Shown here: positions 15,309 through 64,000 of the stretch, piece after piece
How the letters are laid out: each line of letters starts with the position of its first letter
Position numbering within the stretch: position 1 is the stretch's first letter
NCBI RefSeq assembly: GCF_964204645.1
Contig: NC_134029.1
Location: 16,734,950 to 16,798,949, forward strand
DNA length: 64,000 nucleotides
Origin: Tubulanus polymorphus
Lineage: Eukaryota > Animalia > Nemertea
Direction: 5' to 3'
Notes under the pieces: generated by a model
Database searches by the model: none
Seen by the model: the letters and a program-made list of their open reading frames with translations, nothing else
Told to the model about the DNA's origin: nothing
Program-made: the position numbers and the translations under genes

Positions 15309-15351
15309 GATTGGGTTGATTTTGTAGAAATTCAAGATGAAGAGGAGAAAG
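15309..15351 (+). CDS. PCF11: PCF11 micro-exon
   Basis: DWVDFVEIQDEEEK continues the Clp1-binding 'W...DW' motif; AG/GT bounded. Confidence 0.8.
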
Positions 15352-16934: not shown

Positions 16935-17063
16935 GTTTGCGAAATTTGCCGTGATCCATTCGAGCAGTTCTGGGATGAGGAAGCAGAGGAATGGCACCTG
17001 AAAGACGCGATTCGAGTGGATAATAAGACCTATCATCCTGTCTGTTATGAAGACGCTAATGTT
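16935..17063 (+). CDS. PCF11: PCF11 exon, second zinc finger (C2HC)
   Basis: VCEICRDPFEQFWDEEAEEWHLKDAIRVDNKTYHPVCYED, diagnostic for Pcf11. Confidence 0.95.
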
Positions 17064-17134
17064 GTAAGTATTCGAATGTCGATTCCCCATCAACCATTAC
17101 AGCAGAATAACTCAATCTGCTCTCTGTTTTCCAG

Positions 17135-40641: not shown

Positions 40642-40730
40642 AAATGTTAAATTGTTAGACTGTTGAAATGTTAAATTGTTAGACTGTTGAAATGTTAAAT
40701 TGTTAGACTGTTGAAATGATAAATTGTTAT
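40642..40730. repeat. 24-bp tandem repeat x ~3.5
   Basis: (aaatgttaaattgttagactgttg)n. Confidence 0.8.
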
Positions 40731-41084
40731 TTGATTTAATCTTTTAAAAGTTTGATATTTTAAAAATGATTATAAAATATTAAATTAAAAACTAGCAAAT
40801 ATTTATCAATTTTTCAATTTTTTATCTTAAATAAAGGATGGTTTCATTCCAACCGGAAGTAGTGACTTGAAACATTATTTAGTTGCTGGAGGATTAATTT
40901 TAGCTGCGCTATACTTTTATTATGAGAATATTAGTTAAGATCTGATTAATGAAAATATGAAATTAAGTAAGAAGTTAAAGAAGCTGAATGGAAATGGGCA
41001 TACAAATAATAATAATAAAAAAGTTATTGAAATAGATAAACTAATGAATTAATTAAATAATTTTTTCTTTTTTTCTACATGAGT

Positions 41085-42327: not shown

Positions 42328-42362
42328 TAAATCAATTGGTCGCTCCGCGACCAATTGATTTA
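42328..42362. other. Perfect hairpin, 16-bp stem / 3-nt loop (copy at 44717-44751)
   Basis: taaatcaattggtcgc-tcc-gcgaccaattgattta. Confidence 0.85.
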
Positions 42363-42808
42363 TTTACAATACACAAATTCATATAATCAAATATATTCAA
42401 ATAATAATAATTATTCTATTATTTAACTAAAATACACACGGCTATGAAAATATATTATAGTTTTAAATTACTTTTAATATTTGTTTTTAATGAACTCGAC
42501 CATTCAACCTTTAACCTAGAACAACTAAACCCCTATTACTCTTAAAATATTTATATACATGAATAAAATATATATGAATAACATATAAATTGATAGATTA
42601 TTCAATATAAAAGTGTAAGTAAAGTGTTAATAAAGTGTGAGCTCTTATAGAATAGATATATAGATATATTTTAAACATATTTCAATATTTATATTTGTAT
42701 GAGTTAGATTTTTAAACATTAAAAGTGTTAGTAAAGTGTGATTGAAATAATTCATATTTAAATCATTGAACTTCTAAAATCAATTTTAATAAAAAATTTA
42801 GTATTAAA

Positions 42809-44197
42809 ATGGAAGCAAATAAGTACTACTGTTCAACATGTAAAATCAATATAGATAAATCCCAAAAAGCAAGACACAATAAAACTAAAACACATTTAGA
42901 GAATAAATTGAAATTAGAATATAAAGATGATATATTAGAAACTAAATTAGATGAATTAAAGAATGAAAAAGAAACATATAAATGTGATACATGTAATCAA
43001 TCATTCAGTGATAAAAGATATTATAAAGAACATTTAAAATCTAAAAGTCATATTGGAAATATTGGAAATATGAATAATGATATTTTAGGTGAGGATTATT
43101 TTGATAATGACAATGATCAGAAACATAAGACAATTAAAAGAATAAGAAATAAATTAAACAATAAAAGACCATACATGGAAGATGTAAGAAATTATATTAA
43201 TTCATTAGATAATAAAAAAAATATAGAGATAACCGAAGCATTTAAAAGTGATATTGGTCCAGCTGCTAGTGAGTTTAAATTTCATAAAGGAAAAACATTA
43301 GAAGAAAATAAATAACATTTAGAAAATATGAAAAATATCATAAAAATAATTACTGATGTTGAATACCCTAAAATAAGTATATCTTCTAAAGTAAAGTTTA
43401 GGCAAAAAAAAATTGATACCTTGTTTCTCCGCTCTGCTGAGCTTAAATGTTGACCCGGCCGGCCGCCTATCTACCCTATACATTACTTTTTTTTAAATCG
43501 TGATCAATTTCACCATAACAGACCCGGCCGCTATGGAAATGAACTGTTTATGAATTTTATCATATTTCACAAAAATGACCCGGCCGCTGCGGAGAAACAA
43601 GATATCATTTTTGTTTAGCCTTATAAAATCTGAAGATAAACCAATATATAATATAAATTCTCATTCACAACATATTATATCTAAACAACATATAGATGAA
43701 AAATTAGATAAATGTTATAATGAAGTAAAAACTAAAATAGAAGAGAAATATTTTGAAGGATCTGGTTTAATATTTGATGAAATAATATTTATGACTTTAC
43801 ATGTTTATAACACAAAATATAATAAGTTAACTAAATCGAAACCAATAGATGAAAATAATGAAACCAGATATTGAAGCATCGAGTTATATCAAACTACCAT
43901 TTAAAACTAATGCTGTAATAAATGTACAAAATTTTGAAGATAAATGTTTTCTATGGACAATTATAAGTTGTTTACACGCAGTTGAAGATTATAAACAACA
44001 TAGTTTTAGATTAACACATTATAAACCATTTGAAAATAATTATAAGATAGATAAGTATCCTATTAGAATTAAAAATATCCCAAAAATAGAAAGAGATAAT
44101 AATTTAAGAATAAATGTATTTGATTTAATCAAATCATCAAAAACAAAAGGTAACAATATAAAACATTATACATTAGAACCTTTATATTTAACAAAAG
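42809..44197 (+). pseudogene. Duplicated 5' part of polymerase 1 (zinc-finger N-terminal region)
   Basis: Nearly identical to 45198-46586; carries a stop, a MITE and a frameshift. Confidence 0.85.
43401..43620. mobile_element. PIF/Harbinger-like MITE in the polymerase 5' region
   Basis: TIRs ggc.aaa.aaa..tgata.cttgtttctccgc, TTA duplication; removal restores KVKFIKSEDKP (compare GKVSFIKSEEK in polymerase 2). Confidence 0.8.
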
Positions 44198-45197
44198 TTC
44201 GGTTGCGTAGTTCGGTTGCGACGGTCGCGTCGCGTCGCAGAAAGTAGAACATGTGCGACTCATTGCGACTGGCGTCGCTGGCAGTCGCAACCCGTCGCTG
44301 GCAGTCGCAAGGTAGCGTAGGTCGGCGAGTCGTTGCGACGCGATCTTCGCTGGCGGTCGCAGTGAGTCGCAAGCCGTCGCAAGGCCGACCTACGCCCGGC
44401 TTAAGACATACATTTTCGAAATAGGAAGAGATAGAAAAAGACTTGATAAGTACTTGCGAATTAAGAGGGAGAGATCGTCACAGGAGATGAATATCTGTGT
44501 GAGCGACTTACTGAAATTAACATTCTTGAGATAGCATTTAATCAATTGTGTGCCAATGTTGCAGACAAAAATTCCAGTTCACTTACGAACAGTAAGCGCA
44601 TATCCTTGCCGAAATTGCAGTTACCAAAATTTGCTGGTGATTTGTTGGAGTGGTGTTCCTTTTGGGATTTTTTTAAGTCTACGGTTGACGAACAAAGTAA
44701 TTTGAGTTCAGTGAATTAAATCAATTGGTCGCTCCGCGACCAATTGATTTATTTACAATACACAAATTCATATAATCAAATATATTCAAATGATAATAAT
44801 TATTCTATTATTTAACTAAAATACACACGGCTATGAAAATATATTATAGTTTTAAATTACTTTTAATATTTGTTTTTAATGAACTCGACCATTCAACCTT
44901 TAACCTAGAACAACTAAACCCCTATTACTCTTAAAATATTTATATACATGAATAAAATATATATGAATAACATATAAATTGATAGATTATTCAATATAAA
45001 AGTGTTAGTAAAGTGTTAATAAAGTGTGAGCTCTTATAGAATAGATATATAGATATATTTTAAACATATTTCAATATTTATATTTGTATGAGTTAGATTT
45101 TTAAACATTAAAAGTGTTAGTAAAGTGTGATTGAAATAATTCATATTTAAATCATTGAACTTCTAAAATCAATTTTAATAAAAAATTTAGTATTAAA

Positions 45198-48100
45198 ATG
45201 GAAGCAAATAAGTACTACTGTTCAACATGTAAAATCAATATAGATAAATCCCAAAAAGCAAGACACAATGAAACTAAAACACATTGAGAGAATAAATTGA
45301 AATTAGAATATAAAGATGATATATTAGAAACTAAATTAGATGAATTAAAGAATGAAAAAGAAACATATAAATGTGATACATGTAATCAATCATTCAGTGA
45401 TAAAAGATATTATAAAGAACATTTAAAATCTAAAAGTCATATTGGAAATATTGGAAATATGAATAATGATATTTTAGGTGAGGATTATTTTGATAATGAC
45501 AATGATCAGAAACATAAGACAATTAAAAGAATAAGAAATAAATTAAACAATAAAAGACCATACATGGAAGATGTAAGAAATTATATTAATTCATTAGATA
45601 ATAAAAAAAATATAGAGATAACCGAAGCATTTAAAAGTGATATTGGTCCAGCTGCTAGTGAGTTTAAATTTCATAAAGGAAAAACATTAGAAGAAAATAA
45701 ATAACATTTAGAAAATATGAAAAATATCATAAAAATAATTACTGATGTTGAATACCCTAAAATAAGTATATCTTCTAAAGTAAAGTTTAGGCAAAAAAAA
45801 AATTGATACCTTGTTTCTCCGCTCTGCTGAGCTTAAATGTTGACCCGGCCGGCCGCCTATCTACCCTATACATTACTTTTTTTTAAATCGTGATCAATTT
45901 CACCATAACAGACCCGGCCGCTATGGAAATGAACTGTTTATGAATTTTATCATATTTCACAAAAATGACCCGGCCGCTGCGGAGAAACAAGATATCATTT
46001 TTGTTAGCCTTATAAAATCTGAAGATAAACCAATATATAATATAAATTCTCATTCACAACATATTATATCTAAACAACATATAGATGAAAAATTAGATAA
46101 ATGTTATAATGAAGTAAAAACTAAAATAGAAGAGAAATATTTTGAAGGATCTGGTTTAATATTTGATGAAATAATATTTATGACTTTACATGTTTATAAC
46201 ACAAAATATAATAAGTTAACTAAATCGAAACCAATAGATGAAAATAATGAAACCAGATATTGAAGCATCGAGTTATATCAAACTACCATTTAAAACTAAT
46301 GCTGTAATAAATGTACAAAATTTTGAAGATAAATGTTTTCTATGGACAATTATAAGTTGTTTACACGCAGTTGAAGATTATAAACAACATAGTTTTAGAT
46401 TAACACATTATAAACCATTTGAAAATAATTATAAGATAGATAAGTATCCTATTAGAATTAAAAATATCCCAAAAATAGAAAGAGATAATAATTTAAGAAT
46501 AAATGTATTTGATTTAATCAAATCATCAAAAACAAAAGGTAACAATATAAAACATTATACATTAGAACCTTTATATTTAACAAAAGATTATGATTCAAAC
46601 GATGTTATAGATATATTATATTATGAGAATCATTACATGTGGATTAAAAGAATTGATTTATTTTTTAAATCAGAAAGTATTTTTGATAATAAAATATATC
46701 TATGTAGAAAATGTTTACATAAATTCAGAACTGAAAGTGCATTATTAAATCATACACAATTATGTGAAAATCATGATTATTGTAAATTAGTTTTACCAAT
46801 TGAAAAAGATAAAATATTAGAATTCAAAAAATATGATTACAAAAATAAAGTTCCATTTGTAATATATGGAGATTTTGAATCATTAAATAAAGAATTAATT
46901 GATCGAGATAGAAAAGAAATATATTATAAAAGAAAGAAATTAAATTCTAATGAAAATGATTTTTCAGATGAACCACCAAAAACAATTACTATTAAAAAGA
47001 TTCATCAATCAGCTGCTGCTTTCGGGTTATATATTAAATCTGATTATCCAGAACTAATTAAAAGTGAATATTATCATTATAGAAATGAAAATGTTATCAA
47101 TATTTTTGTGACTTATTAATTGAATATGAAATAAGATTTAGTAAATTATTGAATTCAAATATAGAAATTATAATGACAGAAGACGATAAAGAAGCATTTG
47201 AGTTTACAGATAAATGTTATTATTGTGAAAAGATATTTAATTATAAAGATAAAAAAGTAAGAGACCATGATCATTTGAATGGAACGTTTAGAGGCGCTGC
47301 GCATGAGAATTGTAATTTGCAAGCAAAGAAAATCAATTTTGTTCCAGTTATATTTCATAATCTATCAGGATATGATGCACATTTATTCATCAAACAGTTA
47401 TGCCATAAAATAGAAGAAATTAATAATGAAATAGAAAGATTAAATTCAAATAGATCAAAAGATAAAATACCAACTTATAAATTTAAAATGTTAGCTAGAA
47501 CATCTGAGAATTATATATCATTCCAATTTGGGTGTCTAAGATTTATAGATTCATATAGATTTTTAAATAGTTCATTAGATAACTTATCAAAATCATTAGT
47601 TGATGATGAATTAAAAATATTAAAGCAACACTATCCAAATAATGATGATTTTCAATTAATGAGATATAAAGGCGCAATTCCATATTCATTTTATAAATCA
47701 CATAATGATTTTAATATAACTGAATTATTGAAAGAACAATTCTATGATGAATTAAGAAATGAATATGTTAAAGATGAAGTCTATAATAGAACATTGAATA
47801 TTTGGAATCATTTTGGAATGAAAAATCATGGACAATTAGTAGATTTATATTTAAAATCAGATGTATTATTATTATCGGATATATTTGAAAGGTTTAGAGA
47901 TGTAAACCTAAAATATTTCAATATTGATCCTTGTCATTGTTATTCTAGTCCAGATTTAACATGGGATTGTGGTTTAAAATGTACAAATATGAAAATGGAT
48001 TTGTTAACAAATATAGATCAATTATTATTATTTGAAAAATCTATGAGAGGAGGAGTTTCAGGTGTATTAGGTGATAGATATTTCAATGTAAATGATAACA

Positions 48101-49105
48101 CTGGATATAAGTTATTATATATAGATGCAAATAATTTGTATGGTTGGGCAATGATGGAACCACAACCTTATGGAGTATTTGAAATAAGTGAAGTTTTTGA
48201 AAATAATGATAAATTTGATTGGAAGAAAAGAATTCTAGATATTGCAGATGATTCAGATACTGGTTACTTCTTTGTTGTAGACTTGGAATATCCTGATCAT
48301 ATTAAATTTAAATCTAGAAATCTAGTATGCTGTCCCGAACATAAAACTGTAACTCATGAAGAATTATCAAATTATCAAAAAAGAATTAAACCCGAAAATC
48401 ATATTCATACAGAAAAGTTAATGGTAACTCAAGAAGATAAATATAATTATGTAGTACATCATAGAATGTTAAAGTTTTATTTGAATCAAGGAATGGTTCT
48501 AAAAAAAGTACATAGATATATTTCATTTAGTCAATCTAAGTGGTTAGAAAAATATATAGATTTTAACACCAAACAGAGAACTGAAGCTAAAACTGATTTC
48601 GAGAAAGATTTCTTCAAGTTAATGAATAATGCATTCTATGGTAAGACTTGTGAAAATATTAGAAATAGAAATGATATTGAGTTAGTTAGTAATGGCAAAA
48701 GGATAAGGCATTTACAAACATATCCTAAATTTATAGGTAACAGAATATTTGATGAAAATTTAGCTGCAGTTAAAATGAGAAGAACATCTATGAAATTTAA
48801 TAAACCAATTTATGTTGGAGCATCAGTTTTAGAATTATCAAAGTTATTAATGTATGAATTCTATTATAATGTATTACAACCTCATTTTGGAGAAAAACAT
48901 ATAGAAATCTTATATTTTGATACTGACAGTTACATATTAAAGATAAAAACTAATAACATAACTGATGATTTAAAAACATTAAAACATCATTTTGATTTTA
49001 GTAATTATCCTAAAAATCATGAATTGTTTAGCAATGATAATAAAAAGCGACCGGGAAAATTCAAAGATGAATTAATGTGGTGAAGAAATGATTGAATTCA
49101 TTGGT
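45198..49105 (+). pseudogene. Protein-primed family B DNA polymerase 1 (intein-free); N-terminal zinc fingers and an EndoVII/HNH-like insert; 3' end displaced by an inversion
   Basis: IYGDFES (ExoI), RDHDHLNGTFRGAAHENCNL, FHNLSGYD (ExoII), YLKSDV (ExoIII), MRGG, YIDANNLYGWAM (A), KLMNNAFYGK (B), YFDTDS (C); several stops/frameshifts and a MITE. Confidence 0.92.
45790..46009. mobile_element. Second copy of the same MITE (via the tandem duplication)
   Basis: Same TIRs and TTA duplication. Confidence 0.8.
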
Positions 49106-49340
49106 TTTAAAATTAGATGAAACCATTTATTTACATTTCTAATATGAATTAAAAAAGTATTATGTTCAATAGTTTTATTCGATATATTGTAAAATGAGTT
49201 ACATAAACTTATATTAACTAATTTTAAATCAACACAATTCTTAAATTCTCTATCTAATTGTACTTGTAAATTATGAGATTTATAATTTGTAAGTTTTCTA
49301 GAATCAACAAATATTCTATATTCTTTTAATTCTACGATCT
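49102..49340 (-). pseudogene. 5' part of penton-like gene 1 (inverted)
   Basis: Reverse complement reads VELKEYRIFVDSRKLTNYKSHNLQVQLDREFKNCVDLKLVNISLCNSF, nearly the same as the start at 63070. Confidence 0.8.
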
Positions 49341-49355
49341 ATTTTACATATTTTC

Positions 49356-49709
49356 TTATTCGAAATCTATTTCATGGTGCCCCTTTTCATCCTTACCTTT
49401 GTATACGAAATAGAAATCTCCAGAACATAATTCTTCTAAATCTTCACTTGATAATCTATGAAATCTATCCGGTAAATATGTTCTGAATTTATATGTATTT
49501 CCTTTTAATCCTTCATATTCTAAGTGTATAACTAATTTATCTCCATATTTGTTAGTAATTGTATCAATATTTGTAATTAGATATTTCTTATGGATTATTA
49601 ATTGTTTTAACTTCTTAAATTTATAATCTACTGATTTGACATTTGAAGTATCTTTTATTCTATCTAGAAATAATTTGTTGTTCTCACTGTTTGCTTGTTT
49701 ACTCTCCAT
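49356..49709 (-). CDS. Hypothetical viral protein, 117 aa (inside the inversion)
   Basis: Intact ORF with TAAATG start; motif TNKYGDKLVIHL...TYLPDRF. Confidence 0.6.
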   Translation of the reverse strand: MESKQANSENNKLFLDRIKDTSNVKSVDYKFKKLKQLIIHKKYLITNIDTITNKYGDKLVIHLEYEGLKGNTYKFRTYLPDRFHRLSSEDLEELCSGDFYFVYKGKDEKGHHEIDFE

Positions 49710-49738
49710 TTATAATACATATTTTTATTAAAATTTGA

Positions 49739-50090
49739 TTAACACGTTAGAATTCTTTTCATTATCTCGTTCTCTTTTGTTTCTTCTCTTTTAAATTTTA
49801 AGTATTCATCTAAATTGCAACCATAAGCAACTGTGTGAATTCCGTCATCTAAAATATATCTTTTATCATCAAATGGGTTTAGACTTATCTTCTCTATCTC
49901 TTCAATAAACATTTCATGATCTTCAGATCTTAAACATTTCATCTTATGTTTTCTAACTTCTTCTTTGAATATACAATTGATGTAATCTTTGAAATGAATA
50001 TTCCGTTAAACAACGCTTTTGGTAATTCCTTTCAATTTCTTTGATTCATGAGTTTTGGTTTTATATGAATACATTTTGGATCTAATACCA
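49739..50090 (-). pseudogene. C-terminal part of polymerase 1 (inverted)
   Basis: GIRSKMYSYK...KKLKGITK...CLRSEDHEMFIEEIEKISLNPFDDKRYILDDG, colinear with the C-terminus of polymerase 2. Confidence 0.88.
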
Positions 50091-50612
50091 GGATTATATA
50101 ATTTAGAAACATTATCTCAAGAAATTAATCGAAGAGCACGGTCGAAAATTAGAAAAGATGATAAATTTTTAATTAGATTTATAAAAAGTGATAGCACAAA
50201 TAAAATTAAATTAAAGGTATTTGATGAAAGTCAACATGCATTTATAGTAAAAAAACCATTAGCTAAATTGCTAGGAATTGCACCAGATGTTGTTACAGGA
50301 AACGTAGAAGGCATTTCAAATATAATACCTTTTACGCACTTTTATATTTATTGCAATTTAATTGATCCTACAAAAACATTTGAAGCAACTAAAGATACAA
50401 TTTGTAATTCTAGTATATTAAATATTTTACCATTAAAAAATGTTAAACAATTTGGAACGCAAATAAATTATAATTTAGCTGAATGTGATTTTAAACCTTG
50501 TATTCCTCAATTTAACAATTTTAAGTTAGAAGTAAGAAATCACAATGGATACTAAATTGATTTGAATAACTTTCCTGTAATTTATGAATTAGTTATAAGA
50601 TGTAAAGAGTAA
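50087..50612 (+). pseudogene. 3' part of minor capsid (penton-like) gene 1
   Basis: PGLYN...LAKLLGI...FYIYCNLID...ILNILPL...FNNFKLEVRNHNG..IDLNNFPVIYELVIR follows the Polinton penton pattern; one in-frame stop. Confidence 0.65.
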
Positions 50613-50628
50613 TTTTTTCACTATATAA

Positions 50629-50988
50629 ATGAATATAACTGTTGGACCGAGTATATGTTTTGGGTTTGATTTTAAACGTGAGAAAGAAATGAAATTTAAC
50701 ATTAATGATGTAATTACACATATCAAAAATATTGCATTTTCTAATGAAACAACATTTGAGTATGAAAAAACAATAGATAAAGAAACTTTAAATGTAGGAA
50801 AGATTACTAATTTCATTAGAGAATCTTTAAGATTTTATGAAATAGATGAAGATTTTATCATCGATGATATTAAAAAAATAATATTTGAAATATATACAAA
50901 TGAAACTAGTAATGAAATAAATGTTGAATTAATCATAAATAAGTTAACTAAATATTTTGAAGATAGTAATTTTTTGATAAATAAATAA
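50629..50988 (+). CDS. Hypothetical viral protein
   Basis: TAAATG start; homolog at 63845. Confidence 0.6.
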   Translation: MNITVGPSICFGFDFKREKEMKFNINDVITHIKNIAFSNETTFEYEKTIDKETLNVGKITNFIRESLRFYEIDEDFIIDDIKKIIFEIYTNETSNEINVELIINKLTKYFEDSNFLINK

Positions 50989-51206
50989 GTGATAATAAGT
51001 GGATAATAACTGGATTATATAATGGAGCATTATTATCAGTTGGAACTGTTGGTTATTCAATGGTATTAAAAAAAGTATTTAAAATGGGAAGTGTTAATGT
51101 TGATAGATTTGATATAAATGATATTTTAAAATTAACATTAGCAGTCACTTTATCTAATTTAACTATTGATTATTTAGAAAAACAAAAATACATTCCTCCC
51201 ATATAA
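50985..51206 (+). pseudogene. Small hydrophobic viral protein (~73 aa), start codon apparently mutated to ATA
   Basis: Open frame ...GYSMVLKKVFKMG...DILKLTLAVTLSNLTIDYLEKQKYIPPI*, preceded by the shared T-tract/TAAAT motif. Confidence 0.5.
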
Positions 51207-51230
51207 ATGCGTAATTATTTTACTAAATAA

Positions 51231-51653
51231 ATGGCTTCTGCAATTATAACTATTATAGGATCGGCAATTGTTAACGCTTTAGCATTTACTGGTGGTGGAT
51301 ATTTATTTAAACATATTGATAAAAATGGTTCATTATCAGAACAAAAAAGACATAACTTAGCATTAGAAAAATATAATAAAGCAGCGGAAGAATATAGAGA
51401 AAAGAGACAAAACTATATGGATTATATTAACAAGGAATTATATGATCAGAAGATTTCTCACAGAGATTTTCAATCAGTTGATGATGCAATGAGTTTATAT
51501 AACGCAGTAACCAATAAAGAAAAATTACATCTACATAAACCTACAATATCAGATTATTATACCCCAAGTAATGAACAGAAGAAATATGAAATAATTTGGA
51601 TTTTAGGGGGAACAGTTATTGTTATATTTGTTGCGTATAGATTTACTAATTAG
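51231..51653 (+). CDS. Hypothetical Polinton-type protein with N- and C-terminal hydrophobic segments
   Basis: MASAIITIIGSAIVNALAFTGGGYLF...EQKRHNLALEK; intact ORF, TAAATG start. Confidence 0.65.
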   Translation: MASAIITIIGSAIVNALAFTGGGYLFKHIDKNGSLSEQKRHNLALEKYNKAAEEYREKRQNYMDYINKELYDQKISHRDFQSVDDAMSLYNAVTNKEKLHLHKPTISDYYTPSNEQKKYEIIWILGGTVIVIFVAYRFTN

Positions 51654-51673
51654 TAATTTTTTTTGCTAAATAA

Positions 51674-52108
51674 ATGGATGATAAAGTTGATAATATTGAT
51701 ATTATTCCTCATGATATAAATAAAACTAAATTGAAAATATATTTGGAAAAACAAATATTAGAATTTGAAAGTGACTTAAGATTAAAAAAGAAAAAATATT
51801 TAAAAAGTAAAATTATATATTATTTTATTATCAGTGGTTCGGTTACAATTAGTTCTGTAATAACATTTCTAGCAATATTCAGTCCATTAACACCTTTAGC
51901 TATATCAATTGGTGTATTAGGATTATCATCAAGTGTTTTAACCGGTATAAGTTCAAAATTAAATATAAAAAGTAATAAAGAAAAAATTAAAACTAATATA
52001 AAAGAAATTAATAAATTAAAGAATACACTAGATTATATAATAAGTTTAAATGGTCATATAACAGTTGAAGAACAAGATAAATTATTAAAAGAATTAGTTA
52101 ATTATTAA
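51674..52108 (+). CDS. Hypothetical membrane protein (two central hydrophobic helices)
   Basis: Intact 144-aa ORF, TAAATG start. Confidence 0.6.
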   Translation: MDDKVDNIDIIPHDINKTKLKIYLEKQILEFESDLRLKKKKYLKSKIIYYFIISGSVTISSVITFLAIFSPLTPLAISIGVLGLSSSVLTGISSKLNIKSNKEKIKTNIKEINKLKNTLDYIISLNGHITVEEQDKLLKELVNY

Positions 52109-52124
52109 TTTTTTAATTATATAA

Positions 52125-53404
52125 ATGGGGTTTCCAAAAGCTTTCCAATATAATAAATCAATTAAATATAATATTCCTGCAATAGATTTTAACAAAAATA
52201 TTACATATAAAAATGTAGTTTTAAATTCATTAACTAATTTAGAAATTTATGTTACTGAATTTTATTTCTAAAATGGAAAATATATTTAATACATATGAAG
52301 TTACTTTTACTCGAGATGAATATCATATATATGAAGTAAAATCTAATATGAAATATTGGCAAAATCAATTAAATTTTGCTGTTTATTGTGCAACAACTGG
52401 TTGTGGTATAAGCTGGAATGATCATTTAAATAACTTAGATAAAAATTTGAATTATTCTGATTTAAAATTAATTCACACAATATTTAGATTTCACACATAT
52501 TTTCAAATCAGAATAATATTAAATGAATTAGAATTTACCCGGATCTAAATATTTTAAAGAATTGGATAATAATATTAATCTATCTAAGTTTTATAAAATA
52601 TGTAATGAATTTAATGTAAATATTAATTCCGATTTTAGAGCGCATGGTAAATTGCAAGGTATTGGTGAAGAGTATGAAATAAAAAGAATTGATTATATGC
52701 ATAGAATTTCAGCTTATCATAATTATAAAATTGATAATAATAATGGTTGGATTAATTTCATTTTAGAAAATAGTGAAGGTTTTACAAAATCAGGTATACA
52801 AAGAATAAATCAATCTATTAGAACTTATTTGATATGTATTTTAGGCGCGCAAGTTGAAACAAGATCACCAATAGTTGGAAATGATAACACTTCATTTGAT
52901 GCGCAGAAACAATTTAAAGTTTTATTTGAAGATTCCATTCATAATGATAAAAATAGATCGATTCCAGAAAACATTGTAAGATATCAAAATTATTTAGATA
53001 AATCACATATTAGATTAAATTATTGTATAGGCCCTAATCTATTCATTATTTCTAATGATTTAGTATTAAAGATGGGAAATATAATTGGTTATAATAATTT
53101 AATTAAAACTGCAACAATAAATAATTCATTTGGATTAAATGATATAAATAAAAAGATTATCACTGCTCCAAAATTAATGGAAGGTGAAAAAAATAAAAAA
53201 CATATTCAATCAACAGAAACTAAAACTAAGAATATTAAATTAAATAATGATTCTAAAATAAAAGATTACAATACTACAGAAATTATTAAAACTGATAATA
53301 TTCAACATGAAATAATTAAACTAAATGATGATAATAAATCCCATGAAAATGCTAAATTAGCTATAACTTTTATAGGAATTGTAATCGGCGGAATTATATT
53401 TTAA
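52125..53404 (+). pseudogene. Hypothetical viral protein with C-terminal TM segment, frameshifted
   Basis: TAAATG at 52125, joining ORFs 52249-52548 (WQNQLNFAVYCATTGCGIS) and 52562-53404. Confidence 0.6.
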
Positions 53405-53427
53405 ATTTTAATTTTTTTATTATGTAA

Positions 53428-55020
53428 ATGGCAGAAGGTGGAGAAGATTATGAAATGGGAGGAATGGGAAATAATAATGACGGGTATATTGATGATTATA
53501 ATGATGCTGAAAATAATATTGATAATAATGATGAAACAGCATATAATTCTAATTTAGCAGATAGTGGTTCTAAAGCCCCATCAACAGATGAATTTGATAG
53601 AAGAACTAGATCGAGAATAAATCCTGAAAATGAAAATCAAGGTTTAGCAAGACAAGATTTAGAATATAATGAAAATATTTATAAATTCAAACCTGTATTT
53701 GAAAGATCTGGGTATAATATAAATGATAGAGATGCCGAACGTTTAGTAGGAGATTTAAAACTTTTAGAAGGTAAATATTATTATCATTTGGATGGTGATT
53801 ATTATATTGATATCACTAATCAAAGGACAAGACTAAACAAAATATTAGCAAAATCAACTTTGGAAAAATTAGAACCAGATAGAATTAAAATAATAAGTAT
53901 TAATAATGAAATAACTGATGTTACACAAGAAGAAAGAAATGATAATATAAAAGAATTTAGTCAAAGAATTGATGACTTATTAAAAATAATCAATAAAAAT
54001 TCAGAAACAGAAATGGAAGAGTATGGAGATCGATTAGATAGATTAAGATCTTCAACACCCGAAACATCGAGAAGAGATATTCAACAAATTGATAATGATT
54101 CAAGTCAATTACAATTAGGAAAACATTTAGATAACTTACTGGATACAATGAATTCATTTGAAGAAGATATGATTAGTGTTTTAGATACACCCGGTGCTGA
54201 AACTGGAATAAATCGAATACAATCTTTACTAGAAAAAGGATTACTTGATTTAACTGATGATGAATTAGAAGCATTTCCTGAACAAACACGTAGAGAAATT
54301 AAAGGTATGCAATTTCACCAGCTGATTCTTGCTAATATTAAGATGAGATTTTCTAAAATAACCATGTTAGAAAAAGAATTAACTATTGCAAATGAAGAAT
54401 TAAAACATTTAGAATTAAATAGAGATCTTCAAGTAATAGAGGAAGCTGATTATGAAAGCAGAAAGTTAGCTTTAGAAAAAGAAATAGATGATTTGAAATA
54501 TAACAAAGAATTACAGGAAAAAGAAATTAAAATCATATGATCTTAATCATATCAAAAAATTAAAAGTTATTTTTAAAGATTTAATAATTAAACCAGATTC
54601 TAAAATATCATCGAAAGATAGAATAAAATTATTATTTAAGTTAGAAGGAATAACAATTCTTTCAATTCTAACATCTGTAACTATGGTATTTACAACAATT
54701 GGTTTAGCTATATCAAATTCACTGAAATCTACTCCTACTCCCAATAAACCGGATAAACCCCCAGATAGTAATTCGATACAAGATAAGTTAAAGATGGTTT
54801 AAAAAAATTAGCAAAATATTTATGGGAACTATCTAAAAAATCTGCTGCAGCTTTACCAGGAGTTATTGCATCAATTGTTGGTTTTATATTGAAATCTGCA
54901 GGAAACATTCTTAACTTTGCTGCTAAACATATTATTTTATTTTTAATTACAGTTGTAAGTGCTATTATTTTTGGATTCGTGAATATGATATCAAAAAATA
55001 TCAAGAAAAAATACACATAA
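53428..55020 (+). pseudogene. Large coiled-coil protein with C-terminal amphipathic/TM helices, disrupted after 54540
   Basis: 370-aa ORF, then downstream fragments ...KKSAAALPGVIASIVGFILKSAGNILNFAAKHIILFLITVVSAIIFG... Confidence 0.55.
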
Positions 55021-55054
55021 TAAAAAATAAATAATTAATTTTTTTGTTAAATAA

Positions 55055-56267
55055 ATGAGCGGGAGTTATATCAATCCTTCTAAGAATCATAGAATATCTA
55101 ATGCTATTTAAGATCACATCATATAATTACTCATAACCCTTCTAATATTAATCCCGATGAAACTTTATATGTTAGAATCCCTCCATTAACACAAAATACT
55201 TTTTATGTTCCAAATAGTATTTATTTATCAGCCGATATAAAAGTAACTGGTAATAATAATAATTACGTTGTTGATAATGTTGGAAGATATTTGATTAAAA
55301 AATTAACTATAAAGATTGGTCCAGAAACAGTTTTCTCATTAGATGATGATAATTTATTTATGCATTATAAAGATTTATGGTTAACTACAGAAAATAGAAA
55401 TAATATGATATTTCAAGGAATCCAATCAGAAAACCAAAATAAATTAAGACCAGAAGCACATAATGCAATATTAACTAATGCTATAGATAAATTGATAAAA
55501 AGTATATATGGAAGCAGATATAATAATTAAGATTTTGAATTGATAAATAATAATGCACCTTTATATAAATACGCAATTCAAGAAGATGTTATATTCGAAA
55601 TAACATTTGCTCCTGTTAATGAAATCGTAATATCTAGCGTTAATAAAGATATGGGTTATAAATTATCGAATATATGTTTAGAATATGATACAGTAACTGA
55701 TGAAAATATTTCAAGTATAATTCAAACTCAATACAATCAAGGATTTTCATTATTATATGATTATATTGATAAATTTTAAACTGTAACTATTAATGCAAAT
55801 GATGAAATTATTAATGAGAATATTAACTTCCCAAGAAGATCTATTTAAGGTATATTAATATTTTTTACCATTGCCACATATTCAAATGGTGAAATAAATG
55901 TTGATAATTATTATAATCCTGAAATAACAAAAGTAGAAATAACTATCGAAGGAATAGCAAATAAAATATTTTGTCAATGAATGAGAATGAACATTTTATG
56001 AATGAAAAAGTAAAATCATCTGAAAATTGTAATATTAATCAAATTGATTACTATATCGGTAATAAATACGCATTATGGTTAGATTTTAGAACAACAGAGG
56101 ATAATTCATTACATGGTTCTGGGAAAAAACTACAAAATACAAAAGATGGAATACAATTATTCATGACAAAGAATAAAGGAATCAAAAATTTCAAAATGCA
56201 TATTTATATTATATCTGACGCGCAATTAAATATCGTAAATTCTCAATTAAATAGTGTTATGTATTAG
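55055..56267 (+). pseudogene. Major capsid protein (double jelly-roll, Polinton/adintovirus type), fragmented
   Basis: IITHNPSNINPDETLYVRIP...VDNVGRYLIKKLTIK...NICLEYD...KYALWLDFRT...LHGSG...IYIISDAQLNI; beta-strand-rich, ~400 codons, several stops/frameshifts. Confidence 0.7.
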
Positions 56268-56299
56268 AATTTTAACTTTAATAAAAATTTATATAATAA

Positions 56300-56620
56300 A
56301 TGGAAGGAGGTAAAGTATATAAACATATTCCATATATCGATACCCATGAAAATAATGATGGCTTATATTATGTAATACCTTGTAATATAGCTTTGATATT
56401 TGATCCTATTTTTAAAATTTATAAAACTAAACTAATAGAAATCGATAATAATAAAAGTGGTGTTGTTGATAATTTAAGTAATGTAATTGATGATAATGTT
56501 ATACCTTCTACATCTAATAATGTAATACCTTCTACATCAGTAATTGTAAAAGTAGGGTTTCATACCAGAGGGCGAGAGGGCGAGACACCACTCATCACCA
56601 CAAGTAATTTTTTTTCCTAA
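56300..56620 (+). CDS. Hypothetical protein, 106 aa
   Basis: TAAATG start; short internal repeat (NVIPSTS x2). Confidence 0.45.
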   Translation: MEGGKVYKHIPYIDTHENNDGLYYVIPCNIALIFDPIFKIYKTKLIEIDNNKSGVVDNLSNVIDDNVIPSTSNNVIPSTSVIVKVGFHTRGREGETPLITTSNFFS

Positions 56621-56623
56621 TAA

Positions 56624-59600
56624 ATGGGGGAGAATGAACACCAACCAGAAAACAATAATGTTAATAAAAATCAATATTATTGCCAATATTGTAAAAAATA
56701 CATCGATACATCTCATAAAACACGACATGAAAAAACTGCAAATCATATAAAAAATGTAATAGATTTTGAAACTCCAGAAAATTCCAATGAAAGAAAAGAA
56801 AGATTAGAAAATATGAATGTGGATGAAATAAAATGTGAAGTTTGTAATGAATTTATAGTAAAAAGGAATTATAATAGACATCTCGAATCACAAAAACACC
56901 ATCAAAATTTGAGTAATAATGTTTTAGGAAAAGATTATTTCGATGATAAACCTCAAAAAGTAAAAAAACCAACTTCAAAAACTAAATCCATTTCAAATAA
57001 ACCTTACATGGAAAATGTTAGAAATTATATTGATTCACTAGAAATAAAAGATACAATTGAAATTTTAGAAACATTACATAGTAAAATTGGTCCAGCAGCT
57101 ATTATATTTAGATTTTTTAAAGGTACAACAATAGAAGATTATAGTAAATTTAATGAAATAAAAGAAAAAATACTAGATTTGATAACAGATGTTGAATATC
57201 CAAAAATTAGTATCTCTGGGAAAGTAAGTTTTATAAAGTCAGAAGAAAAAATGGATTATAATATTCAAACACTCTCTGAAGAAATAATTTCAAAAACGCA
57301 AATAAAAGGGAAGTTAGAAAAAATATTTAATGAATTTAAACGTCATATTGAAGAAAGATATTTTGAGGGTTCTGGCTTAACATTGAATGAAATTGTATAT
57401 TTAGATTTAAATGTTTACAATACAAAAAGGAATAAAACATCAAAAAGTAATAAAATGTTTAAAAATGATTCAAACTTTACAACAGAAAAGGATATTAAAG
57501 CATCATCTTATATTAAATTACCATTTACAACAAAAGCAGTAATAAATGTTCAAAATGAAGATAATAAATGTTTTCTATGGTCAATTATTAGTTGTTAACA
57601 CCCAACAGAAGATATGACGCATAGTTTTAGAATAACAAATTACCGGAAATATGAAACATTATATAAAATTGATCAATATCCAGTAACTATAAAAATGATT
57701 CCTAAAATAGAAAAAGTTAATAATTCAAAAATTAACGTATTCGAATTAATGCAATTACCAAAGACAAAAGGTGAAAATATTAAAGATTATACATTGGAAG
57801 CTTTATATTTAACAGAATATTATGATGATGAAAATGCTATAGATTTGTTATATTACAAAAAAGATGAAAATGAACATTATATGTGGTTAAAACAAATTGA
57901 TTTATTCTTTAGAACAGAAAGTGATCACCATAATAAAATTTATCTATGTAGAAAACGTTTATCTAAATTTATGACTGAGAATACATTATTAAAACATAAA
58001 GAATTATGTGATAATAAAGATTTTTGTAAATTAATAATGCCAACAGAAAAAGATTATAAATTGAAATTTACTAATCATAAATTTAAGAATATTGTTCCAT
58101 TTGTAATTTATGGGGATTTCAAATCGTTGAATAAAGAATTAACTGATCAAGATAGAAAAGAAATATATAACAAAAAGCAATTATTAAAATCAATGGATAA
58201 AGGAAATGAATTAAATGAAGACACAACACAAGACCCACCAATTATAAATACAATTAAAAAAGTTCATCAAAGAGCTGCTGCTTATGGAATTTATATAAAA
58301 TCAAATTATCCCGAATTATATGAAAGTCAATATATTTCTTTTAGAAGTGAAAATGTAGTTAATGATTTTTGTAACAAAATGATTGAATTAGAAAGTGATT
58401 TTGCAAAATTATTAAACAAAAATAAAAGAATAGTTATGACAAAAGAAGATGAAATTGATTTTAATTATGCAACTCATTGTTGTTATTGTGAAAAACGTTT
58501 TTATTCATTTGATAAAAAAGTTAGAGATCATGATCATTTAAATTCAAAATATCGTGGAGCTGCTCATGAAGATTGTAATTTACAAGCTAAGAAAGTTAAT
58601 TTCGTACCAATATTATTTCATAATTTATCAGGCTATGATACCCATCTATTTATAAAACAATTATCAAGGAAATTGGGCACAATTAATCAAGAAATAGAAG
58701 AATATAATGCTATGAATGGTGTAAATGTAAGAAATATGATTTTAAACTATTAGCTAAAACATCTGAAAATTATATTTCATTTCAATTTGGTTGCATTAGA
58801 TTTTTAGATTCTTATAGATTTCTAGCAAGTTCATTAGATAATTTATCAAAAAGTTTAGTTGATAATGATTTTGTTATAACTCGATATTATTATCCAAATG
58901 AACAAGATTTTAAATTATTGAGATATAAAGGTGCAATTCCTTATTCATTTTACAAAACACATGATGATTTTAATGTAACAGAATTATTAAAAGATCAATT
59001 TTATGATCAATTAAAAGAGGAGTATGTGAAAGATGAAGTGTTTAATAGAACATTAAATATTTGGAACCATTTTAAGATGAAAAATCATGGTGAATTAGTT
59101 GATTTATATTTAAAATCAGATGTTATGATATTGGCTGACATATTTGAAAAATTTAGAGAAGTTAATTTGAATCATTTTAATGTTGATCCTTGTTATTGCT
59201 ACTCTAGTCCTGGTTTAACCTGGCAATGTGGTTTAAAATATACAAATGTAGAATTAGATTTATTAAAAGAACCAGATATGGTTTTATTATTTGAAAAATC
59301 AATTAGAGGTGGAATTAGTGGTGTTATGGGAGATAGATATTTTAAAGCAAATGATGAATATAAATTATTATATATTGACGCCAATAATTTATATGGTTGG
59401 GCAATGATGCAACCTCAACCATATAAAAATTTTATATTAACAGAAGTTGAAAATGATGATAAAACTAATTGGGAAAGCGCAATTATGAGTTTAGAAGATG
59501 AAGCACCAATTGGTTATTTCTTTGTAGTTGATTTAGAATATCCTGAAAATATAAAGTGTAAAACAAGAAACTTACCTTATTGCCCAGAACATTTAACTGT

Positions 59601-61692
59601 AGATGATAGTTATTTAAGTGAATACCAGAAGAAAATAAAACCGAAAGATCATGTTTTTACAGAAAAATTAATACTTACTCAAAATAATAAATACAATTAT
59701 ATTGTTCATTATAGAATGTTAAAATTCTATCTAAAACAAGGAATGAAATTAAAGAAAGTACATAGATATATTGAATTTAATCAATCGAAGTGGTTAGAAA
59801 AATATATAGATTTCAATACTCATCTGAGAACAATATCAAAAACAGATTTTGAAAAAGATTTCTTCAAATTATTGAATAATAGTTTTTATGGTAAAACATG
59901 TGAAAATATTAGAAATAGAAATGACATTGAATTAGTGAATAATTCTGAAAGATTAAGACATTTACAATCAAGTCTTAGACATTTAGGAAATAAAAGATTT
60001 GAAGATTATTTAACAGCAGTTAAATTAAAAAGAACGTCAATGAAATTTAATAAACCTATATTCATTGGTTCAACTGTTTTAGAAGTATCAAAATTATTAA
60101 TGTATGATTTTTATTATAATGTTTTACAACCACTTTTTGGGGAAAAGCATATTGAAATATTATATTTTGATTCTGTAACAGCTGACACCCCAATATTATT
60201 AAAATGTAATGATAAAATATTGATAAGAAGAATTTCAGAAATAATTCCAAAACAAAATGAATGTTATATTTCATATGGTGAAAAAGAATTAATACAAATA
60301 AATGGTTTAATGGATGTTTGGACAAGAAATGGATGGAAAAAATTAAAGAATATTATTAGGCATAAAACAAATAAGAAAATCTATAGAGTTAGAACTAAAT
60401 TAGGGTTTGTAGATGTTACAGAAGATCATAGTTTAATTAAACGAAATGGCGATGAAATAAAACCAACTGGTATAAAAATTGGAGATGAATTATTACATAA
60501 AAGATTTTTCCAAAGAATGAATCATATGTCATTTGATGAAATAATTGATAATATTTATAACATAGAACCCGAAACATTAGAAGAAAAAGAATATTTCATC
60601 AAAGGATTTTTCATGGGAGATGGTTCAGCAGGTGTGTATAATTATGTTTGGGGTAATAAATATTGTTGGTATTTATGCAATCAAGACTTAAAATTATTAG
60701 AAAGAATTAAGAAATTCTGTGAAGAAGTTTATCCAAATAAAACATTTAGAATCATGAATGTTATGAAATCATCAGCAGTTTATAGAATACTTGTAAATAA
60801 TCCTAAAGATTTTGCTATAAAATATAATGATGAATTCTATATTCATGCAATAGTGAAAAGTTATACTTCAACAAAAGAAAAGATAGTTCCAGATTATGTA
60901 TTAAATGCAAAAAATAATTCAAGAAAATGGTTCTTCATTGGATTCTATGCGGCAGATGGTGCTAAAAAATTTACAAAGGATAAAAAGATAACCTTTGCAC
61001 AGAAAGGAAAAGTTGCTATATCAGGGTTAAATATATTATGTAATTCATTAGGCTTCAATATGAATATTGGATTGATTAAATCTAAACCAAATTGCTTTAA
61101 TCTAAGCCACACAGAAAAAGATTTAACTGAAGAAGTTAAAGATTTATTTGAAATATATAACCCATCAGATTATGTTTATGATTTATCAACTGAAGATGGT
61201 ACATTTAACTGTGGATTTCCATTAATTTGCTTCAATACTGACAGTTACATACTAAAAATCAAGACAAATGATATAACAAAAGACTTAAAAACATTAAAAC
61301 ATCATTTTGATTTTAGCAATTATCCCAAAGGTCATGAACTATTTAGCAATGATAATAAAAAGATTCCTGGTAAGTTTAAAGATGAATTAGGGGGTGATGA
61401 AATGATTGAATTTGTTGGGATAAGAGGTAAAATGTATAGTTATAGAACAAAAGATCATGAAGCTAAAAAGTTAAAAGTAATAACAAAACATGTGGTTGAT
61501 AAACATATAGAATTTCAAGATTATATAAAGTGTTTATATAACTCAATTGTAATGAAACACAAAATGAATTGTTTAAGATCAGAAGATCACGAGATGTACA
61601 TTAATGAAGTTGAAAAAACTAGTTTAAATCCATTTGATGATAAAAGGCATATTTTAGATGATGGTATAAAGACATTACCTTATGGCCATTAA
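56624..61692 (+). pseudogene. Protein-primed family B DNA polymerase 2 containing an intein; one in-frame stop (57596) and one frameshift (~58730)
   Basis: ORFs 56624-57598, 57614-58753 and 58918-61692 are colinear with polymerase 1; all PolB motifs present, motif C split by an insertion. Confidence 0.92.
60172..61236 (+). mobile_element. Intein (355 aa) with LAGLIDADG homing endonuclease in PolB motif C
   Basis: In-frame insertion ILYFD|SVTADTPILL...VDVTEDHSL...FIKGFFMGDG...FFIGFYAADG...YVYDLSTEDGTF...ICFN|TDSYIL; absent from polymerase 1. Confidence 0.93.
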
Positions 61693-62005
61693 AACATAAA
61701 ATCAATATCATCATACTCGAAATACTATTGGCTTCTTCATTTTCATTTAATTGTTTAGGTTCTTCTTCCATTTCATTTTTCTCATTTAAATATAGTTCTA
61801 TCTTGTTCCACATTTCATCTCGCTCTCTTTGTTTCTTTTTGTTTGTTAATTCATCAAATGGAATTATAATATCTATGTTTAAATAATTTTCAATCTTATT
61901 TAAAAAGAATTCTTAATTTATTGAATCTGTTATTCTATTTTCCAAATGATACATTGATATTTGTTTGAATATTTTTTTTATGTTTTTCATATCTTCTTCT
62001 GTTAA

Positions 62006-63001
62006 TTAAGGTTTTTCATAATAATCGTTAAATAATAAATATAAATACATTTTCTTTTGTTTTGTGTTAAATGTTGACGGAATAATTGTTTTAAGAATAT
62101 CTTTTTTAGTTATTTCACCATTTTTATTTTCTATTATTTTCATTTTTTCAAGCCATTGCATATATTCTGGTGTATGATCTTCTATAGAAAATATTTTAAA
62201 AATTTCATCTAGATAATTTAATTTTGGATCTATGAGAAAATTTCTAGTTTTTTCTTCACTCCATAAATTCTTTTGCCATACACATTCATTACAAAATAAC
62301 ACAGTACCTTCTTGTCTTAAGGTCGCATAACATTGTGGACATTTTCGTTTATAATTTATTGGTAATAGATCTTCATTAAGCTCTTGGTATTTTCTTACGT
62401 TTTCTTTATGTTTTATTGTTCTATTATGTAGATTTGAATTACTTGTTGTAATAATCAATTTACAATATTTACAATAATATGTTTTTCTTGTTAATTCATT
62501 ATATTGTTTTTCTAACTTTTCAACTGTTTCTTTATTATCTAGTAACGTTTTCTCATATTTTATTTTTTCTAATAAACTATTTTTTCTTTCATTGAATTCT
62601 GTTTCAAATTTATTAGAAATTTTATCTCTATGTGCTTGACGAAATTGATGATTCTCCCAATCTTCTATATTTTCAGGTCTATATTTTACTTGACAAGGCT
62701 CACAGAAATGATCTTTTATATTATCCTTGTCATAGAATAAGAAAGGTCTTTTCCAAATAATTTCAGGTTCAACTTCAGCAGAATTACTATTACTTTCATT
62801 ACTATCAACATTAGCCGTTGCGCCATTAATTTTACACTTCTCTGAATGTTTTTTGACATAATTTCTTGAGAATAATTTATTACATTTTGGACAGTTTAGT
62901 TTAGGGGGTTTATAATTTTCATCATGTTTTTTCATATGTCGAGCCATATTACTTTTTCTAAGAAGTTCACCACAAATTTCGCATGGTATCTTCTCATCCA
63001 T
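62006..63001 (-). CDS. Multi-zinc-finger viral protein, 331 aa
   Basis: CEIC...HMKKH, CPKC...HSEKC, CEPC...H...H, CKYC...H...H, CPQC...CNEC; TAAATG start. Confidence 0.7.
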   Translation of the reverse strand: MDEKIPCEICGELLRKSNMARHMKKHDENYKPPKLNCPKCNKLFSRNYVKKHSEKCKINGATANVDSNESNSNSAEVEPEIIWKRPFLFYDKDNIKDHFCEPCQVKYRPENIEDWENHQFRQAHRDKISNKFETEFNERKNSLLEKIKYEKTLLDNKETVEKLEKQYNELTRKTYYCKYCKLIITTSNSNLHNRTIKHKENVRKYQELNEDLLPINYKRKCPQCYATLRQEGTVLFCNECVWQKNLWSEEKTRNFLIDPKLNYLDEIFKIFSIEDHTPEYMQWLEKMKIIENKNGEITKKDILKTIIPSTFNTKQKKMYLYLLFNDYYEKP

Positions 63002-63069
63002 TTATTTAGGAAAAATTTTATTAAAATTAATTTTTAGTGATGAGCGGTAATTTTTTTATGTTATAAATA

Positions 63070-63828
63070 ATGGTAGAATTAAAAGAATACAGAATATTTG
63101 TTGATTCTAGAAAACTTACAAGTTATAAATCACATAATTTACTAGTTCAATTAGATAGAGAATTTAAGAATTGTGTAGATTTAAAATTAGTTAATATAAG
63201 TTTATGTAATTCTTTTAATAATATAACGGATAAACGTCTAGAACATTTAATTTTTTTCAATCTTTTACAAAAAAAGGAATAAATGGTTTTTTTTATATTT
63301 AAAACCAGGATTATATAATTTAGATACATTAGCACAAGAAATTAATAGAAAAGCTCGAGCTAAATTAGGAAGTGATTCCGGATTTAGTATTAGAATTTTA
63401 AAAAGTGATAGTTCTAATAAAATAAAGATTAGGTTAGCTAATGACGAACAATTTAAATTTACAGTAAGAAAACCTTTAGGTAAACTGTTGGGAATTAACC
63501 CAGATATTGTTACAGCATACGCAGAAGGTAGATCAAACTTAATACCTTTTACACATTTTTATATTTATTGCAATTTGATTGACCCAACAAAAACATTTGA
63601 AGCAACTAAAGATACAATTTGTAATTCTGGTTTATTAAATATTTTACCATTAAAAAATGTCAAACAATTTGGAACTCAAATAAATTATAATTTAACTGAA
63701 TGTGATTTCAAACCTTGTATTCCACATTTCAATAATTTTAAATTAGAAATAAGAAATCATAATGATATTTAATTGATTTGAATAACTTTCCTGTGATATA
63801 TGAATTAGTTATAAGATGTAGAGAGTAG
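63070..63828 (+). pseudogene. Minor capsid (penton-like) gene 2, frameshifted
   Basis: ORFs 63070-63282 and 63488-63772 are colinear with the reassembled penton-like gene 1. Confidence 0.65.
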
Positions 63829-63844
63829 TTTTTTCATTATATAA

Positions 63845-64000
63845 ATGAATATAACTGTTGGACCGAGTATATGTTTTGGATTTGATTTTAAACGTGAGAA
63901 AGAAATGAAATTTAACATTAATGATGTAATTACACATATCAAAAATATTGCATTTTCAAATGAAACAACATTTGAGTATGAAAAAACAATAGATAAAGAA
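63845..64000 (+). CDS. Homolog of the 50629 ORF, truncated by the window end
   Basis: MNITVGPSICFGFDFKREKEMKF...; two synonymous differences from 50629-50784. Confidence 0.7.
   Translation, partial: MNITVGPSICFGFDFKREKEMKFNINDVITHIKNIAFSNETTFEYEKTIDKE

Follow-up and report, generated by a model that had tools for sequence, protein, structure and literature searches.

Are inteins found in animal genomes? In the available text of PMC5784728 (whose supplementary table gives Metazoa = 0) and PMC8529194, inteins are reported to be absent from metazoan genomes, and this absence is the stated rationale for using intein inhibitors as antimicrobials. The nearest precedent for an intein on eukaryotic chromosomes comes from the available text of PMC10710043, which describes viral-like DNA polymerases that contain inteins and lie on nuclear scaffolds of Klebsormidium nitens, Tetrabaena socialis, and Hondaea fermentalgiana.

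A second line of precedent concerns the polymerase. The protein-primed DNA polymerases (pPolBs) of Polinton/Maverick elements (adintoviruses) have been found with HNH, VSR, or GIY-YIG nuclease domains (bioRxiv 2023.08.22.554363; PMC11071308, as far as their accessible text goes), and one sentence of PMC11071308 suggests that the nuclease domains in polinton pPolBs are an outcome of intein invasions. The words 'intein' and 'LAGLIDADG' are absent from the available text of bioRxiv 2023.08.22.554363, which deals with nematodes, and 'intein' is absent from that of PMC8502044. In the open literature searched, there is no report of an intein with a Hint domain in either a pPolB or an animal genome. 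The available text of PMC12220804, PMC3671162, PMC4104785, and PMC11131425 contains no description of one, and the searched intein supplementary tables, including that of PMC5784728, have no Polinton entry in their accessible parts.

The intein described here lies near the end of the window, that is, the whole stretch of 64,000 nucleotides that was analysed (Table 1). It represents the known pol-c allele in a host protein of a new class, very probably within an animal genome, and belongs to a lineage rather than being a single accident.

Table 1. Features of the window and the evidence for them; residue numbers are those of the 355-aa intein.
Feature	Coordinates	Strand	Evidence or remark
PCF11, multi-exon, intron-rich	990..17683	+	
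PCF11 domain: CID	990-1148		above Pfam cut-off
PCF11 domain: Pcf11_helical	4943-5269		above Pfam cut-off
PCF11 domain: Pcf11_C zinc finger	16887-17144		above Pfam cut-off
LINE, 761-aa reverse transcriptase frame	22622-25445	-	RVT_1 E 2e-36
Exon, weak RFXAP C-terminal domain match	29272-29826	-	E 8e-5, below cut-off
AT-rich viral region (22-25% GC), two related tandem units, continuing past window end	40000..64000		
LTR retrotransposon remnant with nested MITE, left part of viral region	41079..42330	+	
Intein-free paralogous pPolB gene, second family, YFDTDS intact	45160..49104	+	74% identical
Inverted 3' piece of intein-free pPolB	49742-50090	-	
Major capsid gene, broken in window copy	55056..56267	+	database homologues
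5' part of intein-bearing pPolB gene: zinc finger, endonuclease-VII-like stretch	56624..58753	+	
N-extein of pPolB: exonuclease and polymerase part, YFD at end	58708..60171	+	
Intein, 355 aa	60172..61236	+	insertion alignment, Pfam, AlphaFold2, Foldseek
Intein part: Hint N-part	residues ~1-110		
Intein part: two-motif LAGLIDADG endonuclease	residues ~135-313		
Intein part: Hint C-part	residues ~320-355		
C-extein of pPolB, TDS at start	61237..61692	+	
Zinc-finger ORF of element	62006..63001	-	zf-U1 E 7e-7
Conserved viral ORF	63251..63772	+	duplicate at 50052-50555, 87% at DNA level

Boundaries, motifs, and fold of the intein

The insertion spans 1065 nt, or 355 codons, which are free of stops and in frame with the ORF at 58708-61692; its translation begins with SVTADTP and ends with ICFN. 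Both ends are fixed because an empty paralogue about 11 kb away aligns with one clean gap: the intein-free gene (47089-49083, 74% identical) differs by a single gap of 355 columns placed exactly at YFD/TDS. An in-frame insertion of this length splitting this motif had been claimed in the initial annotation, and the alignment bears it out. The claim that this is the pol-c site also holds, the site of the Mimivirus intein being YGD/TDS (available text of PMC549080).

Does the insert have the residues needed for splicing and cutting? Ser1 (in SVTADTP), block B (TEDH), block F (YVYDLS, with D337), the terminal Asn355, and the +1 Thr are all present, and the two LAGLIDADG helices (GFFMGDG and GFYAADG) retain the catalytic acids D150 and D262; the block D lysine, K237, is conserved as well. 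Every motif named at the outset was thereby recovered. S1, H86, D337, and N355 are invariant in all 33 aligned intein rows, and the splicing residues and both LAGLIDADG aspartates are retained in 12 of 12 aligned pPolB inteins.

One position departs from the usual pattern. The penultimate residue, usually but not obligatorily His in class 1 inteins, is Phe in the window intein, while in the 11 other pPolB inteins it is His (seven), Lys (three), or Ser (one). A literature search on penultimate Phe in inteins returned nothing relevant. Inteins without a penultimate His can splice, and the unique Phe may impair splicing in the window copy.

The profile check for Hint and LAGLIDADG domains gave Pfam matches to Intein_splicing (E 8e-7, below the curated cut-off) and to LAGLIDADG_3 (E 1.8e-5, above it), and the Hint fold was recovered by modelling. 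An AlphaFold2 model built from the 33-row alignment reached a pLDDT of 91.4 and a pTM of 0.91. When the PDB was searched with this model using Foldseek, full-length endonuclease inteins came out on top, namely TliVMA (7qsu, E 2e-18), PI-PkoII, PI-PfuI, and PI-SceI; I-DmoI (rmsd ~3 A over ~190 columns) and the mini-inteins 5o9j and 5o9i (E 4-6e-7) followed at lower ranks. Alignment and model thus confirm a real, complete, and intact-looking class 1 intein of Hint and LAGLIDADG parts, for which splicing and cutting are predicted.

Three other identities can be set aside. A chance ORF or an assembly artefact is ruled out by the exact junctions, the fold, and independent reads; the two exteins and the endonuclease exclude a Hint domain of hedgehog or bacterial-intein-like type; and a group I intron ORF is ruled out by the reading frame and the splice residues.

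The polymerase gene and its virus-like element

What kind of gene does the intein interrupt? The ORF at 58708-61692 matches DNA_pol_B_2 (PF03175, E 9e-17), the Pfam family of organellar and viral family B polymerases, in agreement with the initial claim that the host is a protein-primed DNA polymerase. Upstream of the intein, the gene is broken by a stop at 57596-57598 and by a frame change at about 58710-58750, and the window copy is therefore a decaying fossil. The polymerase is 24% alike to another intein-bearing pPolB, P0006, whose PF03175 score is far higher. The available text of PMC8502044 describes a beta adintovirus class of PolB, with an OTU-like N-terminal domain and a PolB less than 30% alike to the pfam03175 type.

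The capsid gene of the element matches 18 homologues in the database, each 395-420 aa long. The homologue P0410 is 74% and 66% identical to the window gene over two stretches, and its model (pLDDT 61) matches iridovirus and PBCV-1 capsids in Foldseek (E 1e-12); compared with the PBCV-1 capsid by VIA, it gives a Z of 22.2 and an rmsd of 4.8 with 344 aligned. By proxy of this homologue, the window gene is predicted to encode a double jelly-roll capsid protein, and such a homologue indicates that the element is virus-like. The evidence supports assigning the interrupted protein-primed PolB to a Polinton-like element that encodes a capsid.

Is the element a Polinton in the strict sense? No Pfam match to a retroviral-like integrase, a packaging ATPase, or an adenain protease was found in 75 frames of at least 45 aa and in the longer ORFs between 39.9 and 64 kb, where the element is decayed and runs off the window. 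Terminal inverted repeats were absent from the 25 longest of 1172 inverted pairs, the right end of the element lying outside the window. Since no integrase, ATPase, protease, or terminal repeat was found in the window, the term 'Polinton-like' is used.

The GC content drops from 35-42% to 22-25% at about 40 kb and stays low through to the window end. Two viral units, at 46000-56300 and 56600-64000, are arranged head to tail with 74-87% DNA identity, and in each of them the polymerase is followed by small ORFs. The conserved viral ORF downstream of the intein-bearing gene has no Pfam match; going by its motif pattern, it may have a minor-capsid role. A further small ORF at 51674-52108 has two membrane helices and a weak SLATT match (E 0.003), and SLATT genes have been reported in such viruses (bioRxiv 10.64898/2026.10.13.758929, available text).

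In the left unit, the intein-free polymerase is broken by a MITE, by frame changes, and by an inversion of its 3' end; the inversion, of about 1 kb (49102-50090), turns round this end together with the start of the next gene. A 2.4-kb tandem duplication at 41816-46586, with 99.6% identity and a MITE at the joint, is either recent or an assembly artefact. The LTR remnant has a TG..CA LTR, a primer-binding site, and a weak DUF1759 gag piece (E 0.005, below the cut-off). MITEs, LTR remnant, inversion, and duplication all lie in this left unit. The host MITE and LTR insertions to which the initial annotation had appealed are thus present, although their place is the adjacent intein-free unit (41-46 kb) rather than the intein-bearing one.

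Relatives of the intein and of the polymerase

Where else does this intein occur? The best 120 of 325 matches to it include 10 pPolBs, which occupy nine of the top 10 ranks; the remainder of these 120 consists of RNA-primed PolBs, with some type II topoisomerases as well. Beyond the matches listed, P0175, P0269, and the fragment P0277 (with a 72% identical intein) are further pPolB carriers; in all, at least 13 protein clusters other than that of the window have the intein at this pPolB site. Every polymerase intein with parsed ends sits at xxD/S...N/TD. The other pPolB inteins are 44-63% identical to that of the window, compared with 41-46% for five RNA-primed PolB inteins.

In most carriers the intein and the polymerase diverge in parallel. 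Identities of intein and N-extein to the window are 63 and 60% for P0002, 52 and 49% for P0003, and 44 and 48% for P0010. The parallel is broken by P0006, with an intein 48% identical and an N-extein only 24% identical, from which we infer an apparent jump of the intein across pPolB classes.

Both the intein trees and the N-extein tree were built without a root. Ranking the intein rows by similarity to the query makes a clade around it more likely to appear. In these trees the pPolB inteins form one clade, with 99 SH-aLRT in a mixture-model quick tree of 99 rows and with 100/100 for its 12 full-length members (that of the window plus 11) in a careful LG tree of 98 rows, from which the long-branched P0072 was removed. 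Omitted from the intein trees were 22 of the 120 matches with unparsed ends, two nested or multiple inserts, and seven near-identical family members. The clade is placed among giant-virus pol-c inteins, and the careful 98-row tree gives it no supported sister group among the RNA-primed PolB inteins. The initial annotation had expected separate trees to put the intein next to giant-virus pol-c inteins; giant-virus PolB inteins are indeed the nearest outside relatives, but the pPolB inteins form a clade of their own and are closer than these.

The N-extein tree comprises 49 hand-chosen rows with 12 carriers, P0006 being excluded because its site is unparsed. The carriers are scattered among empty polymerases, so that 10 changes are needed, nine of them forced by starred branches, and a single carrier clade is rejected (p-AU 0.001). 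Apart from P0002, the 15 nearest polymerase relatives are all intein-free. Among 117 further relatives, 79 have an empty motif, two have an intein start, and 36 are unscored; DCD is the commonest motif of these empty wider relatives (27/79).

Neither the 107 IMG/VR loci nor the 80 JGI loci with this intein include a pPolB-borne carrier, and free carrier viruses were unseen there; the best of these loci are giant-virus contigs, at 40-42% (GVMAG 40-41% by tblastn). Two capsid fragments found no relative in IMG/VR, and the extein-related loci L108-L110 have no other gene in common with the window.

Some relatives lie outside viral polymerases. Related inteins are found in type II topoisomerases (P0008, P0092, P0098, P0114, P0115, P0117, and P0119) at a D-x-D/TDG motif. 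This site mimics the polymerase motif, and the topoisomerase inteins group as a single clade within those of PolBs, which likely reflects a non-allelic jump. A pol-c intein is also present in P0104, a cellular DNA polymerase delta labelled as coming from Chloropicon primus. The carrier pPolB P0009 is on a 2.5-kb contig in a bacterial symbiont bin for which a clam host is cited; the contig is probably host DNA in the bin, and would then be a second animal carrier.

The explanation that we consider probable is an old, single capture of a complete pol-c intein followed by homing among Polinton-like viruses, with the window family now multicopy and likely integrated in an animal genome. The divergence of the intein tracks that of the polymerase, which points to an old capture and later spread among Polinton-like viruses. 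By standard intein chemistry, the polymerase would be translated as a precursor, Ser1 would attack the D/S bond, the +1 Thr would take over, and the terminal Asn would cyclise, leaving YFD-TDS rejoined. Since the polymerase would work only after splicing, the intein could be lost only through exact deletion. The freed endonuclease would cut the motif-C DNA of empty polymerase genes, and repair from a carrier would copy the intein in. A giant-virus-type pol-c intein would have entered a pPolB once, long ago; this direction is suggested because the pol-c allele is spread more widely in giant viruses and archaea. Cycles of gain and loss would have followed among Polinton-like viruses, also across pPolB classes, and animal chromosomes would have been reached each time a carrier integrated.

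What are the signs of homing? The P0003 family has 136 members on contigs up to 1 Mb. It includes P0003, P0128-P0135, P0174, P0176, and P0440-P0445, and 18 of 20 proteins were scored, giving seven carriers and 11 empties. Away from the site, the differences from P0003 amount to 0-14 of ~1,026 residues (42-43 in three; ~1-4%). At the site, empties and carriers differ at 8-10 of 24 residues, while the carriers are identical to each other; there are at least four distinct empty alleles, some with Cys replacing the +1 Thr. Judged from sequence, this pattern fits a co-converted short flank together with empties that persist through a differing target. In the P0007 family, the carrier P0139 and the empty P0142 are almost identical. 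In the window, the empty paralogue has 27 consecutive bases (within 48900-48950) identical to the intein flanks; this near-perfect target is still empty, so that homing from one integrated copy to another is inefficient here.

Could the intein instead be ancestral to the polymerase class, having only been inherited and lost and no longer homing? Parallel divergence of intein and extein in most carriers would agree with this, as would the empty paralogue with its almost perfect target. However, exact loss would be required many times (10 changes), both endonuclease motifs are retained across 45-60% divergence, the P0006 intein resides in a polymerase only 24% alike, and the carriers and empties of one family differ just around the site. 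Inheritance and loss alone are thus quite unlikely. An extension of the preferred reading, old capture followed by homing, is possible and is put forward tentatively: a homing intein lineage specific to Polinton-like pPolBs, widespread among invertebrate genomes and still cycling among the many copies in animal cells, in which empties evolve resistance to cutting.

Probable chromosomal residence and comparison with known systems

The multi-exon PCF11 gene shows that the surroundings are a eukaryote chromosome, as had been claimed initially. The host is likely to be an animal, as indicated by the weak RFXAP and DUF1759 matches and by gene structure; to our knowledge, RFXAP and DUF1759 are restricted to animals. 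PDB sequence searches with host exons did not distinguish an animal from another eukaryote. The intein sits in a viral gene within the chromosome and not in a host gene.

Is the region present in independent reads? It turns up in runs from two studies under one organism label, the first with four Logan runs and the second with the raw WGS run X6 (2026). In X6 (1,934 million letters), the 5' half of the intein is covered at a depth of 233-238, the flanks at 237-302 and 266, and the 3' half with its junction at 122-162; the lower depth in the 3' half may reflect decayed copies. Contigs span both splice junctions. The 25,391 placed reads comprise 1,203 that are at least 99% alike, 11,851 at 95-99%, and 12,337 at 90-95%, and with about half of them in the last class, many diverged copies are favoured. 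A single-copy locus at this depth would imply a genome of about 8 Mb, so the family is either multicopy or partly free DNA.

Most sequenced copies of the window family appear to carry the intein. The exact empty-site joint (60171->61237) was absent among the joints listed for X6 (15 of 84), and empty copies may exist among the reads. The two breaks of the window polymerase are missing from most X6 reads; clusters of loose read ends lie at 56558-56628 and 63069. In X6, the capsid gene is covered 2-3 times more deeply than the intein-bearing polymerase, which suggests that the capsid module may be common to several polymerase families. In run X5 (a marine metagenome; 6% of words), matches were low and short only.

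Might the viral region be free viral or symbiont DNA mis-joined to host sequence, or the host not be an animal? The very high X6 depth could include free viral DNA, and the RFXAP-like (E 8e-5) and DUF1759 (E 0.005) matches are both below Pfam cut-offs. By contrast, stops, frame changes, the inversion, MITEs, and the LTR remnant are marks of chromosomal residence, runs from two studies contain the region with reads spread over 90-99% identity, and contigs bearing relatives reach 1 Mb, which makes such readings very unlikely.

The initial proposal was that a co-infecting giant virus had passed the intein recently and directly to this single element, which then entered the germline. This is highly improbable and largely refuted. 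In its favour, giant-virus PolB inteins with the same insertion site (40-41%) come closest outside the pPolBs, and the best BFVD fold matches belong to PolBs of a phycodnavirus, Pandoravirus, Marseillevirus, and Megavirus. Against it, inteins of other pPolBs show higher identity (up to 63%, and 72% in the fragment P0277) and share one clade with that of the window, and the GC content of the intein (25.6%) matches that of the exteins (23.7-26.3%).

The locus provides a concrete, multicopy counter-example to the absence of inteins from metazoans, arrived at by way of an endogenous virus, the animal host being likely. Homing normally requires close sequence likeness. This intein would have crossed from RNA-primed to protein-primed polymerases and then between pPolB classes that are 24% alike, with little in common but the catalytic motif. 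Its distribution is molecular evidence of cells shared by Polinton-like viruses and giant viruses. Where a family combines carriers with several empty alleles, homing, co-conversion, and resistance become testable within one eukaryote genome. If the lineage is indeed widespread in invertebrate genomes and active, protein splicing would be natural in animal nuclei and the textbook view of 'no animal inteins' would be wrong.

How does the locus compare with described systems? The pol-c inteins of giant-virus and archaeal RNA-primed PolBs share with it the YxD/TDS site, Ser1, the Asn-Thr junction, and LAGLIDADG (Mimivirus; available text of PMC549080), and those of RNA-primed PolBs are 30-46% identical to the window intein. 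The host proteins differ: that of the window is a protein-primed polymerase of the PF03175 type, and outside the motif its likeness to the RNA-primed hosts is ~22-24%, a background level. In contrast to the giant-virus cases, the host element is a small Polinton-like virus, and the pPolB inteins form their own clade. The inteins of invertebrate iridoviruses (available text of PMC5784728) are, like that of the window, found in viruses of animals, but these are free large DNA viruses, and their inteins are neither endogenous nor in a pPolB.

The nuclease-bearing pPolBs of Polinton/Maverick elements belong to the same polymerase family as that of the window, with inserted nucleases in both. According to their accessible descriptions, they have fused nucleases with no Hint reported, whereas the window polymerase has a full splicing domain in its active site. 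In the nuclear-scaffold cases of PMC10710043, as far as its available text goes, the intein was brought into a eukaryote nucleus by the polymerase gene of an endogenous virus, as in the window. Those cases concern two algae and a protist and are tied to giant-virus insertions; by contrast, the window intein resides in a pPolB, is multicopy, and has a likely animal host.
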